Shown: positions 21,013 through 56,504, counted from the first letter of the stretch. The stretch: DNA of 64,000 nt from Lysobacterales bacterium (GCA_038205505.1 JBBRBU010000014.1:8067-72066), one strand, 5' to 3'. The notes: a model not told the origin generated them from the sequence alone. Numbers and translations: made by a program.

Positions 21013-21762
21013 ATGAGCAAATCCAACACCACGCATTTCGGTTTTCGCGATGTCGCCGAGAGCGACAAGGCGCGCCTTGTCGGCGAGGTCTTCACCTCGG
21101 TTGCGCGCAACTACGACATCATGAACGACCTCATGTCGTTCGGCGTGCACCGCTTGTGGAAGCGACACTTCGTCGCCACCAGCGGCGTGCGTGCCGGCGA
21201 TCACGTGCTCGATCTGGCCGGTGGAACCGGCGATATTGCGGCACTGTTGCTGCCGCGGGTCGGCAAGGCGGGTCGCATCGTCATCGCCGACATCAATGGC
21301 GACATGCTGCGCGTCGGCCGAGATCGAATGATCGATCGTGGCCTGCTGCGCGGTCTCGATTATTCCCAGGTCGATGCCGAAGCCCTGCCGTTTCCGGATC
21401 AGAGTTTCGATTGCGTGACGATGGCCTTCGGACTGCGCAACGTGACGCGCAAGGAGAACGCGCTGGCCGAGATCCATCGCGTGCTCAAGGTTGGCGGACG
21501 GGCATTGATCCTGGAATTTTCCTCCGTGCGCGAGCCCCTGCTCAAGCCGCTCTACGACTTCCACTCGTTTTCGGTCCTGCCGCGCATCGGCAAGCTGATT
21601 GCCGGCGACGAATCCAGCTATCGCTATCTCGCCGAATCAATCCGCAAGCATCCGGATCAGGCGACCTTGAAGTCGATGATGGAGCAAGCCGGCCTGGCCC
21701 GTGTCGATGTGCGCAATCTCTCCGCAGGGATCGTTGCGATCCATCGCGGGTATCGGGTCTAG
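21013..21762 (+). CDS. ubiE: Ubiquinone/menaquinone biosynthesis C-methyltransferase UbiE
   Basis: [36 protein letters not shown] and [10 protein letters not shown] motifs. Confidence 0.96.
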
Positions 21763-21766
21763 TTTC

Positions 21767-22179
21767 AAGGCATCGCTGATCAAGTTGCGCAATCGTCACG
21801 ACGCCTGTCTGCGTGCTGCTCGCGACGTGCAGGCGCAGATGGTTCGGCCGTCTCGACCTCTGCTCCCGCGTTGCCCTCGACGGCTGTTCAAGGCGCCGTT
21901 CTCGATCGCTTGTTCCCGACGCGGTTCTACCCGATCCATCCAAGGATGCGTGCCTCGTGCATCCCTGCAGCCGCTTCAAGGCTGGCGGCGCGACAAAGAG
22001 ATGCGCGCAGACAGGTGGCGCCTGGTCAGTTGTCCGCAATTGAAGCAGGTGGCGTTCAGAGGGCCCGCGAGTCGCACCGCACGACTCGTCATGGCAGCTT
22101 GCCTTCACTTCGCCTCGCAGCACGACTCGCAGGCCTTCTGAAGGCCATGACGGTTGTGCAACTTGATCAGCGTTGCCTT
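21767..22179. mobile_element. MITE-like non-autonomous element with 32-bp imperfect terminal inverted repeats
   Basis: aaggcatcgctgatcaagttgcgcaatcgtca (21767-21798) matches the reverse complement of 22148-22179 at 29/32 positions. Internal nested inverted repeats; no transposase. Confidence 0.7.
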
Positions 22180-22188
22180 AGGCAAACG

Positions 22189-22228
22189 AAAAACGCTCGG
22201 TCAACGTGATAGCCGACCGAGCGGTTTT
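22189..22228. terminator. Bidirectional intrinsic terminator
   Basis: 9-bp stem cgctcggtc/gaccgagcg with an A-tract on the left and a T-tract on the right. Confidence 0.7.
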
Positions 22229-22330
22229 CGGAAGCAAGAAAAGTCGGACGAGAAGCGGAACGCATCCTGCGGTCCGTTCTCCCCTCGTCCGACTTAGGGG
22301 GAGTGGCGTGATGGCGTGGCCGATCACTTG
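22189..22330 (-). ncRNA. Candidate ~140-nt small RNA downstream of luxR
   Basis: 55-nt hairpin (aagtcggacgag/ctcgtccgactt plus inner stem) followed by a terminator. Putative -10 CATTCT at 22341-22336, with a palindrome ~32 bp further upstream. Confidence 0.4.
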
Positions 22331-22362
22331 CCGACAGAATGCCCGCAATAAAAAGACGGCGA

Positions 22363-22383
22363 TAGCTGTCAGTCTGACAGCTA
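22363..22383. promoter_or_regulatory. Perfect 21-bp palindrome resembling a lux box
   Basis: tagctgtcag-t-ctgacagcta; CT-N11-AG core (canonical lux boxes are CT-N12-AG). Confidence 0.5.
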
Positions 22384-22456
22384 GGTTTTATCTTCAAACT
22401 ATGCTAGGTGTCGCAACGTTTGGCGCAGCCGCAGCGCCTTACAGCGCCGCAGCGCC

Positions 22457-23167
22457 TTACAGCGCGATCAATTCCAGGCGCATCGCGCGCGCGATCGCCT
22501 GGCGGCGACCGATGACACCGAGCTTGCGCGCGCTGTTGTTCAGATGAAAGATCGCGGTGCGTTCAGCAATACCGAGTTTCTGGCCGATTTCCCAGCTGGT
22601 CTTGCCGTCGGCGGCCCAGCGCAGGCACTCAAGTTCGCGCACAGTCAGATGCACCGGTGCCTGGGATTTGCCTTCCTTGCCAGAAAGGCGATGAACGGCC
22701 TCATGGACAACAGACGCCAGCAACTGCAATTCACCAAGCTGTTGGAGATGCGCGGCAGCAGTGGTCGTATCTGCAGTTGCCACGGTCAGCATGCCGGAGT
22801 GATCCGGGCCATGCGTCGGCAAGCCGATACCGGCATTCAGGCCGAAATCGACGGCTTCGCTGAAAAACCCGGTCAGATAACCTGCGCGGCGAGCCAGAGG
22901 ATCGGCTGCCCATAAGCACGGGGTCAAACGCCGACGACAGTGATTGATGACCGGGTCGATTTCAAAATAACCCTGGCGCCGATAGTGATCCATCCAGTTG
23001 TCCGGATAAGCCACCAACGGGCCTTTGAAGCGCGCCAGCGACGTGCCATCCGCGTAGACCCAATGATTGAAACCCAGATGGTGCAGCCGCTCATCAACCG
23101 ACGCGCGTAGACGTTCCGTCGATGCGCATTGCAGCATCTGCTGAAGGTTTTCCCATGAATCGACCAC
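22457..23167 (-). CDS. LuxR-family quorum-sensing-type regulator (LuxR solo)
   Basis: Autoinducer-binding motifs YPDNWMDHY...IDPV...LW...G and HTH LTVRELECLRWAADGKTSWEIGQKLGIAERT. No luxI nearby. Confidence 0.9.
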   Translation of the reverse strand: MVDSWENLQQMLQCASTERLRASVDERLHHLGFNHWVYADGTSLARFKGPLVAYPDNWMDHYRRQGYFEIDPVINHCRRRLTPCLWAADPLARRAGYLTGFFSEAVDFGLNAGIGLPTHGPDHSGMLTVATADTTTAAAHLQQLGELQLLASVVHEAVHRLSGKEGKSQAPVHLTVRELECLRWAADGKTSWEIGQKLGIAERTAIFHLNNSARKLGVIGRRQAIARAMRLELIAL

Positions 23168-23277
23168 GCGACGCCCCCCTTTGCTTCAGAAACCGTGGTA
23201 GCCGACGACCCTGTCCGCCACCTTCATGCCCGACCCTAAAAGGACTGGCATACTGGTTAGCTTGCACCGGAGGAAGC

Positions 23278-25122
23278 ATGAAAGCCAATTACCTGTTTGT
23301 ATTATCCGCGATTTGCGTCACATTCGGCAGCGCCAGGGCCGAAGTGGATCCTCATAGCTATTCCGAGCCGAGCAAGGTTGCGGTGACCGCTGTCGCGCTC
23401 GACCTTGCCGTGGATTTCGACCAGAAAGCGCTCGTTGGCAGTGCTGAGCTGGCGCTGAAGTGGCACGATCAGGCCGCCACGGAGCTCGTTCTCGACACCC
23501 GAGACCTGAACATCGAGTCGATCGAGTCGGTCGCAGCGGATGGCCAGGCGCGCAAGCTCGACTACCACCTCGATGAGCGCGACCCGATCTTCGGGTCGGC
23601 TCTGCACATCAAAATGGAAAAACGGGCGCCGCGGCTGAGAATCACCTACCGCACCTCGCCAAAGGCCTCGGGACTGCAGTGGATGACGCCGGCGCAGACC
23701 GCCAGCGGCAAGCATCCGTTCATGTTCTCGCAGTCGCAGGCAATCCATGCACGCAGTTGGGTTCCGCTGCAGGACACGCCATCGGTGCGCTTCACTTATA
23801 CGGCCCATATTCGCGCGCCAAAATCCCTGCGCGTGGTCATGAGTGCCGACAACGATCTTGATCACCCGCTCGATGGCGACTATCGGTTCAGCATGAAGCA
23901 ACCGATTCCCTCGTACCTGCTCGCGCTGAGTGTCGGCGAACTGTCAGTGCGTTCGACCGGTCCACGGACGGCGGTGTATGCAGAGCCGTCGGTGGTCGCC
24001 AAGGCGGCGAAAGAGTTTGAAGACACCGAGGCGATGATCAAGGCGGCCGAAAAACTCTACGGCCCGTATCGCTGGGAACGCTATGACCTCCTCGTCCTGC
24101 CGGCGAGCTTTCCGTTCGGCGGCATGGAAAATCCGAGGCTGACGTTTGCCACGCCAACCGTCATCGCCGGCGACAAGTCCCTGGTCGGGCTGATCGCGCA
24201 CGAGCTCGCGCATTCGTGGTCGGGAAATTTGGTCACCAATGCCAGCGCGGAGCACATGTGGCTCAACGAGGGTTTCACGACCTATGTCGAGAATCGCATC
24301 GTCGAGTCGGTCTACGGCAAGGAAATCGCGACCATGCAGTTGGTCGTCGATGACCAGGAATTGCGCAAGGACATGCTGGACATGAAGCCGCGCGAGCAGT
24401 TGCTGGTCACCAACCTCGAAGGCATCGATCCAGACGACGGCCTCTCCGGCGTGCCGTACGACAAGGGCCGCTGGTTTCTGCGTTTCCTCGAGTCGCGCTA
24501 TGGCCGTGATGCGTTCGATCCTTTCCTGCGCAGCTATTTTGACCACTTCGCATTCCAGAGCATCACCACTCCGGACTTCCTCAACTACTACAGCGAACAT
24601 CTGGAAAAGAAGTATCCCGGCAAGGTCAGCGCTGCAGAGATGGACGCGTGGCTGCATCAGCCCGGCATCCCGGCAAGTGCACCGATCCCGCACTCCGCGC
24701 GTTTCGATGTCGTCGACAAGGCTGCGGCGGAATTTTTCGCAGGCAAGCTCGCGGCAAAGGATCTTCCGGCGAAGGATTGGGTGACCTATGAATGGCTGCG
24801 TTTTCTCAATGCCTTGCCTGCCAAGCCGACTCATGCGCAGATGAAGGCGCTCGACACGGCCTGGAAGCTGACCGGCACCGGCAACGGCGAGATCGCCTTC
24901 CGCTGGTATGTCGCCACCGTGCGTGCTGGCTATACCGAAGCGCGTCCGGCGATTGCGGCCTTCATCGAGCGCATCGGCCGCCGCAAGCTGGTCATGCCGA
25001 TTTACGAGGAGCTGGCCAAGTCCGACGAAGGCAAGGCATTTGCAATCGATGTCTATCGCACGGCCCGGCCTGGCTACCATCCGATGACTCAGGGCAGCGT
25101 CGACAAGGCGCTGGGTCTGTAG
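23278..25122 (+). CDS. Secreted M1-family zinc aminopeptidase (leukotriene A4 hydrolase-like)
   Basis: Signal peptide, GGMEN and HELAH-x18-E (WLNEG). SD ggagg. Confidence 0.93.
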   Translation: MKANYLFVLSAICVTFGSARAEVDPHSYSEPSKVAVTAVALDLAVDFDQKALVGSAELALKWHDQAATELVLDTRDLNIESIESVAADGQARKLDYHLDERDPIFGSALHIKMEKRAPRLRITYRTSPKASGLQWMTPAQTASGKHPFMFSQSQAIHARSWVPLQDTPSVRFTYTAHIRAPKSLRVVMSADNDLDHPLDGDYRFSMKQPIPSYLLALSVGELSVRSTGPRTAVYAEPSVVAKAAKEFEDTEAMIKAAEKLYGPYRWERYDLLVLPASFPFGGMENPRLTFATPTVIAGDKSLVGLIAHELAHSWSGNLVTNASAEHMWLNEGFTTYVENRIVESVYGKEIATMQLVVDDQELRKDMLDMKPREQLLVTNLEGIDPDDGLSGVPYDKGRWFLRFLESRYGRDAFDPFLRSYFDHFAFQSITTPDFLNYYSEHLEKKYPGKVSAAEMDAWLHQPGIPASAPIPHSARFDVVDKAAAEFFAGKLAAKDLPAKDWVTYEWLRFLNALPAKPTHAQMKALDTAWKLTGTGNGEIAFRWYVATVRAGYTEARPAIAAFIERIGRRKLVMPIYEELAKSDEGKAFAIDVYRTARPGYHPMTQGSVDKALGL

Positions 25123-44859: not shown

Positions 44860-45047
44860 GCATCCTCCGCTGTGCCGATGCACATCGAACGACCTTGAAC
44901 CAAAAGGTTCAGGTGGGAGAGCGTTGCGTCGTCATCAGGCTTTCCGCTCACGGCGGACTTGCACACAAACGGTCGCGCTACTGTCCCGGGGTCGATACAG
45001 GAACAAGGCAAAATGTTGAATGGGCTGTCGAACACTGCCGAGGACAC
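44860..45047 (-). ncRNA. ssrS: 6S RNA
   Basis: Canonical zapA-ssrS-ygfA position, ~190 nt. Terminal pairing gtgtcct/aggatgc, a central bubble and the cctgaacc...ggttcaagg motif. Confidence 0.9.
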
Positions 45048-56430: not shown

Positions 56431-56504
56431 TGGCAGCCCCGGATGGATTCGAACCACCGATGCCTGAGTCAGAGTCAGGTGCCTTACCGCTTGGCGACGG
56501 GGCT
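56431..56504 (-). tRNA. tRNA-Gln (CTG)
   Basis: Cloverleaf: AGCCCCG acceptor stem, anticodon loop CT-CTG-AC, GGTTCGAATCC T-arm and encoded CCA. Confidence 0.97.

Follow-up and report, generated by a model that had tools for sequence, protein, structure and literature searches.

A lux box and a conserved structured RNA, probably a LuxR-activated small RNA gene, at the luxR solo locus of a Dokdonella genome

The DNA analyzed here (the window) is a stretch of 64,000 nucleotides from a Lysobacterales bacterium, and positions are counted from its first letter; the source genome is a Dokdonella, family Rhodanobacteraceae. The minus strand of the window carries a luxR gene whose product matched the Pfam domains Autoind_bind (7e-29) and GerE (1.5e-15), with RhlR, LasR, and QscR as the nearest solved homologues. 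Across the LuxR orthologues, the AHL-pocket residues W58, D71, P72, W86, and G113 are invariant, and Y62 is nearly so. A search for LuxI-type synthases (PF00765) gave no matches in the source genome and six sampled congeners, and the absence of luxI 3' of luxR, which had been noticed in an earlier inspection of this DNA (the sequence-only reading), extends to the entire source genome. As the same search detected LuxI in 6 of 121 genomes of the family, the negative result is meaningful. The luxR product is also the only Autoind_bind protein encoded in the source genome (4.26-Mb assembly, 99.98% complete); by these two domain searches, it therefore qualifies as a true LuxR solo of the AHL type.

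The promoter region of luxR (23170-23215 in the window; loci L073-L088) is conserved and consists of GCGTATATT, a gap of about 8-10 nt, and a G5 Shine-Dalgarno sequence, a layout that implies a very short luxR leader. The conserved upstream neighbor of luxR is a divergent gene for an M1-family aminopeptidase (leukotriene-A4-hydrolase-like; 23272-25122, plus strand), which was also found in a second clade of loci (L069) and recalls the luxR-solo/pip pairing of Xanthomonas; no lux box was seen in the window's intergenic region between this gene and luxR. At the other end of luxR, an 18-bp perfect tandem duplication (CGCAGCGCCTTACAGCGC twice, 22430-22465) covers the last codons and the stop codon, and owing to the extra copy the gap between luxR and the lux box is longer than in the closest relatives. 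The features of the locus, in the direction of luxR transcription, are as follows:

23170-23186, minus strand: luxR ribosome-binding region AAAGGGGGGCGUCGC, directly upstream of the GUG start, with a G5-type Shine-Dalgarno sequence; predicted pairing partner of the RNA
22457-23167, minus strand: luxR solo (GTG start), encoding a 236-aa AHL-type regulator of the LuxR family (assigned by Pfam and pocket residues)
22400-22408, minus strand: motif CCTAGCATA, CCTAGCA(C/T)A, 19 nt ahead of the lux box; conserved in the Dokdonella clade
22364-22382, unstranded: lux box AGCTGTCAG-A-CTGACAGCT, 19 bp, predicted LuxR dimer site; the palindrome extends to 22363-22383
22342-22363, minus strand: 22-nt spacer between box and -10-like hexamer, invariant in length and variable in sequence
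22336-22341, minus strand: -10-like hexamer CATTCT (family consensus CAnnCT), kept in 30 of 31 loci
22233-22335, minus strand: conserved structured RNA (match of covariance model R1); predicted transcript from about 22329 to about 22233
22308-22327, minus strand: SL1, 5' hairpin GUGAUCGGCCACGCCAUCAC; all four modeled pairs show compensatory changes
22294-22307, minus strand: single-stranded linker GCCACUCCCCCUAA, holding UCCCCCU (22296-22302) as candidate seed; the C-run is invariant
22243-22293 (22241-22295 with two A-U pairs), minus strand: SL2, 51-nt hairpin with covarying stem and apical CGC-AGGAU-GCG loop
22232-22242, minus strand: U-rich tail UUUUCUUGCUU behind SL2; a U-run is present in most Dokdonella-clade loci
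22184-22223, minus strand: second, strong intrinsic terminator of bidirectional form, with a 12-pair stem and TTTTT (inverted repeat I3)

The lux box lies within a perfect palindrome, TAGCTGTCAG-T-CTGACAGCTA, which was located at 22363-22383 with its center at 22373, just as the sequence-only reading had it (on the minus strand, 22383..22363, it reads TAGCTGTCAG-A-CTGACAGCTA). By arithmetic, about 0.06 perfect 10+1+10 palindromes are expected per 64 kb; the 15-nt palindrome core by itself is not rare once two mismatches are permitted. The lux box of Vibrio fischeri and the las/rhl boxes follow the pattern CT-N12-AG. The box of NspR1 has the sequence ACCTGGCGGTTCCGCCAGGT (PMC8553950). Like these canonical boxes, the site in 29/31 orthologous loci is a 20-bp inverted repeat, A[GC]CTGT-N8-ACAGCT, at the same place and in a position predicted to overlap the -35 region; the source genome and its closest relative, however, carry a 19-bp version with a CT-N11-AG core. 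The remark that the core is one base short thus holds for the window, but outside the closest relative the core is the canonical CT-N12-AG. The 1-bp central deletion is common only to these two genomes, and comparison of the loci indicates that the N11 core is a recent 1-bp deletion from the canonical 20-bp box. The shortened box might bind LuxR more weakly than the 20-bp form.

The strongest evidence comes from related genomes. Among 60 relatives searched, 16 congeners showed 69-89% DNA identity in the non-coding stretch downstream of luxR, which adjoined a LuxR orthologue every time, with LuxR protein identity at only 45-73%. The regions after 22 orthologous luxR genes all contained one module, composed of CCTAGCAC, 19 nt, AGCTGT-N8-ACAGCT, 22 nt, CATNCT, and the RNA. 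A scan based on a LuxR alignment, with one genome per species, then yielded 80 loci, to which a covariance model built from 20 RNAs was applied. Every one of the 31 LuxR orthologues that reached 45% identity, all from Dokdonella and allied Rhodanobacteraceae, had the RNA downstream and on the same strand, and the model gave no match at the 49 loci of more distant LuxR proteins (Lysobacter, Nitrosospira, and others). Carriers in culture include Dokdonella immobilis CGMCC 1.7659 and Dokdonella sp. MW10, with the module at loci L082 and L086. Co-occurrence was equally strict within a genus sample (13/13 genomes with the LuxR orthologue, 0/7 without it) and family-wide, where matches in 301 genomes were confined to orthologue-bearing genomes with one match per luxR copy. 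An origin of the RNA from a repeat or mobile element was ruled out by its single occurrence per genome. Depending on insertions, the box lies between 31 and 399 nt behind the luxR stop codon, and the module stays intact throughout. The palindrome and hairpin are thus kept beside all 31 orthologous luxR genes, and by comparison of these loci the joint retention of box, spacing, hexamer, and RNA is the real proof of the module.

The minus-strand hexamer CATTCT (22341..22336) lies 32 nt downstream of the palindrome center, in agreement with the sequence-only reading. The gap between box and hexamer is exactly 22 nt in 31/31 loci, with drifting spacer sequence, and the only deviation from the CAnnCT consensus is GATGCT in L087. 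From this layout, we infer a transcription start near 22329, about 7 nt past the hexamer, which would place the center of the box near -44/-45; with such a start, the RNA would begin at SL1. A box near -44/-45 is where LuxR-type activators (LuxR, LasR, TraR) replace the -35 element. Binding of LuxR to the box is predicted from box similarity, geometry, and co-occurrence. A simple sigma-70 promoter scan of the window called no promoter at the hexamer site, where the hexamer is a poor -10 element with no -35 element alongside; such a miss is expected, because an activator-dependent promoter would lack the -35 element.

The source genome was also scanned for further sites, as the sequence-only reading had proposed, and five more lux boxes were identified, four of 20 bp and one of 19 bp. 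The box A[CG]CTGTCACTTCTTACAGCT is common to three of them. At each of the five, a gap of exactly 22 nt separates the box from a TAnnnT-like hexamer on the side of an ATCGC-like flank, and the geometry of the luxR locus is thereby repeated:

C121:6224-6243: hexamer TAGCTT; tyrosinase gene downstream (Pfam)
C115:3430-3448: the 19-bp box; hexamer TACCTT; gene for an RHS/DUF6531 protein downstream (Pfam)
C126:4189-4208: hexamer TATCCT; gene for a secreted protein, family unassigned, downstream
C11:61884-61903: hexamer TAGCTT
C194:376-395: hexamer TAGCGT

By arithmetic, a [T/C]A...T hexamer would fall at a given position by chance in about 2% of sites; it was observed at 6/6 sites, and the fixed geometry is therefore not due to chance. 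Together, the boxes look like a small candidate regulon of the LuxR solo, in which the RNA gene would be the member located at the luxR locus itself.

Model R1 matched the RNA of the window with 98.7 bits (E 1e-22). The fold of a 161-nt stretch reached -78.7 kcal/mol (z = -6.6 versus shuffles), and a 276-nt stretch gave z = -8.4 versus shuffles. RNAalifold returned SL1, a single-stranded linker, and SL2 from 20 sequences, with compensatory changes in 13 pairs. Among 30 RNAs aligned to the covariance model, a fit that favors structure and with which an unfitted MAFFT alignment agrees, 97.1% of the cells were paired, compared to about 45% when the partners were slid by 1-3 columns, and 19/26 base pairs showed compensatory changes; these pairing and compensation values were reached by 0/500 shuffles. 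The lower stem of SL2 comprises 14 pairs (99.8% paired), ten of them with compensatory changes and many with G-U. Covariance scores in the relatives were 40-107 bits in the forward and at most 20 bits in the reverse direction. The abundant G-U pairs and this gap between forward and reverse scores therefore assign the RNA to the luxR-sense strand.

Some parts of the RNA have changed very little. The C-run of the linker is invariant in 30/30 aligned RNAs and unpaired in the MFE and consensus folds, and together with the start of SL2 and the GGA of its apical loop it is invariant in both clades. The run reads UCCCCCU, or UCCCCCC in the second clade, where the apical loop is CGGAG with GGA retained. 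The U-run behind SL2 reaches up to U9 in the Dokdonella clade and is missing from the second clade. The 55-nt hairpin described earlier for 22241-22295 corresponds to the core of SL2 at 22243-22293 plus its two A-U pairs, and the intrinsic terminator described with it was recovered by a terminator scan as a minus-strand stem with T-run (22223..22194). The sequence of this second terminator is not conserved; several relatives have a hairpin of their own there and others have none. An RNA of about 140 nt, the length given in the sequence-only reading, would arise if SL2 were read through to this terminator, but the conserved part is predicted to span only about 95-100 nt, ending after SL2 and the U-run near 22233.

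An Rfam covariance search of 21700-23300 gave no relevant match at the gathering score or at E values up to 10; the permissive matches in this region were of the chance miRNA/snoRNA type and far below threshold. In the literature on LuxR solos, sRNAs, lux boxes, and Dokdonella, we found no published description of the RNA. It is a new RNA family within a known kind, the quorum-sensing-controlled sRNAs. The geometry at 31/31 loci, the sense-strand covariation, and the perfect co-occurrence with LuxR all support the original proposal of an sRNA controlled by a LuxR solo from behind a lux box. We consider it likely that the locus contains a small regulatory RNA gene that is activated by LuxR and most likely acts in trans.

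The caveat that the hairpin might simply be 3' UTR structure deserves attention, since it leads to a reading without any separate RNA gene. SL2 would then be the terminator and 3' UTR of luxR or luxI, and the palindrome an operator at which LuxR blocks or tunes read-through. Several observations fit: in most relatives, the box starts 31-45 nt past the luxR stop codon with no terminator ahead of SL2; SL2 and its U-run resemble an intrinsic terminator; covariation is also seen in terminator stems generally; and the RNA could stem from luxR read-through, as luxR of most relatives has no terminator of its own. Because most solos lack a terminator between luxR and SL2, SL2 probably ends the luxR mRNA as well as the RNA, and to this extent the caveat stands. 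However, a terminator leaves the invariant UCCCCCU, the covarying SL1, and the conserved GGA apical loop unexplained, and it does not account for the strict 22-nt spacing to CAnnCT, which recurs at the five other lux-box promoters. The module is moreover separable from luxR, remaining intact where it is parted from the gene by up to 399 nt, by luxI, or by a terminator, which in L085 lies on an insertion directly behind the luxR stop codon. We therefore regard a mere luxR terminator as rather unlikely and retain a separate RNA gene as the preferred reading.

The sequence-only reading had further suggested that a plus-strand TATGCT could, with the palindrome, drive an antisense RNA into the 3' end of luxR. 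This hexamer is present at 22400-22405 and would be a fair -10 element for the source genome, and it falls within the CCTAGCA motif that is conserved in the Dokdonella clade, where nearly all loci carry (G)CCTAGCAC(A) 19 nt upstream of the box. In most relatives, though, TGTGCT or GGTGCT stands at the hexamer position, and the critical A is missing; the spacing of 19 nt differs from the 22 nt at every other lux-box promoter; the surrounding motif is absent from the second-clade loci; and the covariance model scores the luxR-sense strand far above the antisense strand. An antisense promoter at this site thus has very little probability. As to the motif, inspection revealed no fit to a sigma-54, CRP-like, or good -10 element.

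A cis-acting leader or attenuator, or else a gene for a tiny protein, was considered as well. Inspection of the sequence shows that the G-rich 5' arm of SL2 offers the C-run an alternative pairing partner, an arrangement that resembles a choice between anti-terminator and terminator, and an ATG is present in the apical loop of SL2. A cis-leader role is nevertheless excluded, because the RNA is followed in both clades by a convergent gene (ubiE in Dokdonella, an S10-like peptidase in the second clade). A small ORF was rejected likewise, since its ATG is lost in several species (GGACGCG) and indels are not multiples of three. Either form of this explanation is highly improbable. In the window, a 413-bp MITE-like insert (21767-22179) with 32-nt terminal inverted repeats (91% complementary) and the bidirectional terminator separate the RNA from ubiE. 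The insert is absent from the relatives, where ubiE ends 40-110 nt past the RNA hairpin.

The position of the RNA relative to luxI could be examined in six second-clade loci (L090, L091, L093, L094, L097, and L100; Rhodanobacteraceae MAGs), in which luxI (Pfam Autoind_synth, 1e-32) lies between luxR and the box-RNA module. In these loci, luxI has a lux box of its own that overlaps the luxR stop codon (L090:3698-3717, with equivalents in the other five). In the five other second-clade members and in all Dokdonella, luxR is a solo and the module follows it directly. The idea that the sRNA occupies the place of a synthase gene was thus not borne out, since luxI precedes the module and the RNA sits after the luxI position. 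As six relatives carry the order luxR-luxI-box-RNA, we conclude that Dokdonella likely descends from a luxR-luxI-sRNA cassette of which luxI was lost and the RNA kept. Six relatives keep luxI, the others have lost it, and every one of them still carries the RNA; this natural experiment suggests that the circuit can spare signal production more readily than the RNA. The most faithfully linked output of the solo appears to be a regulatory RNA and not a signal synthase. Regarding individual copies, L090 and L100 derive from one MAG with two cassette copies, and the luxI match of L100 is split across two reading frames and may be a pseudogene.

The following mechanism is proposed on the basis of sequence comparison. 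The LuxR solo, presumably loaded with AHL from neighboring bacteria, would dimerize on the palindromic lux box (22364-22382), which would stand in for the -35 element with its center about 44 nt upstream of the start, and RNA polymerase would be recruited to the weak CATTCT -10 hexamer. Minus-strand transcription would start near 22329 and end after SL2 and the U-run near 22233 or at the next terminator, resulting in an RNA of about 95-100 nt, or of about 140 nt via the second terminator. This RNA would display the invariant single-stranded UCCCCCU between a protective 5' hairpin and a terminator hairpin, and would most likely pair in trans with G-rich ribosome-binding sites, with Hfq as a likely helper. 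Its best candidate target would be luxR itself, whose AGGGGGG Shine-Dalgarno sequence and GUG start would offer a site for negative feedback on the receptor.

A base-pairing mode of action agrees with the architecture of the RNA. The seed-like UCCCCCU, SL2 with its U-run (which the second clade lacks), and a gene for Hfq are all present, and 5' hairpin, unpaired C-run, terminator hairpin with U-tail, and Hfq together look like a base-pairing sRNA. Another possibility is that the LuxR-driven RNA acts by binding protein, for example by titrating CsrA/RsmA with the GGA loop of SL2. The apex of SL2 resembles a hairpin-loop GGA site of CsrA/RsmA, GGA is found at the tip of the covarying stem in both clades, and the source genome encodes CsrA as well as Hfq. 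Known CsrA/Rsm sponges contain many such loops, however, while here only the single GGA at the SL2 apex is conserved; the RNA has none of the multiple GGA motifs of CsrB/RsmZ-kind sRNAs, and its most conserved element is the C-run and not GGA. Protein titration is therefore improbable, and we continue with base pairing.

The complement of UCCCCCU is AGGGGGA, which amounts to a G-rich Shine-Dalgarno sequence. In 17/20 luxR genes of the Dokdonella clade, a G5 run stands 5-10 nt before the start, behind the conserved -10 element GCGTATATT, and 66 of 3225 crude gene starts of the source genome (2%) have G5 in the same place. The duplex predicted for the RNA linker and luxR AGGGGGGCGUCGCGUGG (Shine-Dalgarno sequence and GUG start) has -24.4 kcal/mol and ranks 4-5 among 3225 starts, in a genome-wide ranking of low specificity based on crude ORF-based gene calls, and is among the best 0.3% of local windows. 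Over the loci, the local rank has a median of 5.5%, the conserved pairing is only about 7 bp, and luxR pairing in the second clade is indistinguishable from background. The two top-ranked targets (C21:23066 and C3:19078, both AGGGGGG(G)TGGCG) depend on a linker segment that varies between species. In light of this modeled pairing, negative feedback of the RNA on luxR translation is a possibility that we advance tentatively. A broader interpretation is offered in the same speculative spirit: the RNA could be the ancestral third gene of a luxR-luxI-sRNA cassette in Rhodanobacteraceae, with UCCCCCU-G5 feedback on luxR. In Dokdonella, where luxI was lost, this feedback would make the eavesdropping solo self-limiting, and the RNA would be the principal conserved output of the solo onto few genes with a G5 Shine-Dalgarno sequence.

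Several known systems bear comparison. The esaS gene of Pantoea stewartii reportedly specifies a small RNA. Its promoter is activated by EsaR (PMC13564444). In both cases, a LuxR-family receptor and a lux-type box at its own locus are connected to the promoter of a non-coding RNA, activation by LuxR being a prediction here. However, esaS and esaR are transcribed divergently, with a single esa box common to both promoters, EsaR needs no AHL to act, and the locus includes the synthase gene esaI, whereas the RNA of the window is co-oriented with and 3' of luxR, whose product is a solo. As Rfam has no model for esaS, the two are likened by description and not by sequence or structure. A second case is RhlS of Pseudomonas aeruginosa, an sRNA of a LuxR/LuxI-type locus that feeds back on the same system (PMC6786874). 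Both RNAs belong to LuxR/LuxI-type quorum-sensing loci, feedback being hypothetical in the present case. RhlS, however, comes from the 5' UTR of rhlI and shares the rhlI promoter, whereas the RNA of the window has its own lux box, follows luxR or luxI, and persists where luxI was lost.

With respect to gene organization, DapZ and MicL are 3'-end sRNAs that have their own internal promoter and share the terminator of the upstream gene. The RNA of the window resembles them in its 3'-end location, its own predicted promoter, and a terminator that is probably common with the upstream mRNA; in contrast to theirs, its promoter is intergenic and not within coding sequence, and would depend on the product of the upstream gene. 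The proposed feedback has a parallel in RsaL of Pseudomonas aeruginosa, the product of a LasR-activated gene at the receptor/synthase locus that exerts negative homeostatic feedback. If feedback on luxR proved true, the RNA would be the counterpart of RsaL in closing a negative feedback loop on luxR. The likeness is limited to this proposed role, as RsaL is a protein that binds DNA and represses the transcription of lasI, and the effector hypothesized here is an RNA acting on luxR translation.

To our knowledge, LuxR solos are very common and their direct targets mostly unknown, and we know of few AHL-type LuxR proteins that directly drive an sRNA. The locus is open to testing: it combines a conserved cis site of constant geometry with a well-delimited RNA, in which a candidate seed is clear, and the source genome adds a candidate regulon. 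Record titles and isolate codes suggest a wastewater or engineered-community origin for several of the matching MAGs, and an RNA switch that eavesdrops on AHLs could matter for community behavior in such habitats. The new RNA family is furthermore available for annotation. Elsewhere in the window, two matches attained the Rfam gathering score, a 6S RNA at 44860-45046 and a tRNA at 56434-56504, both on the minus strand.
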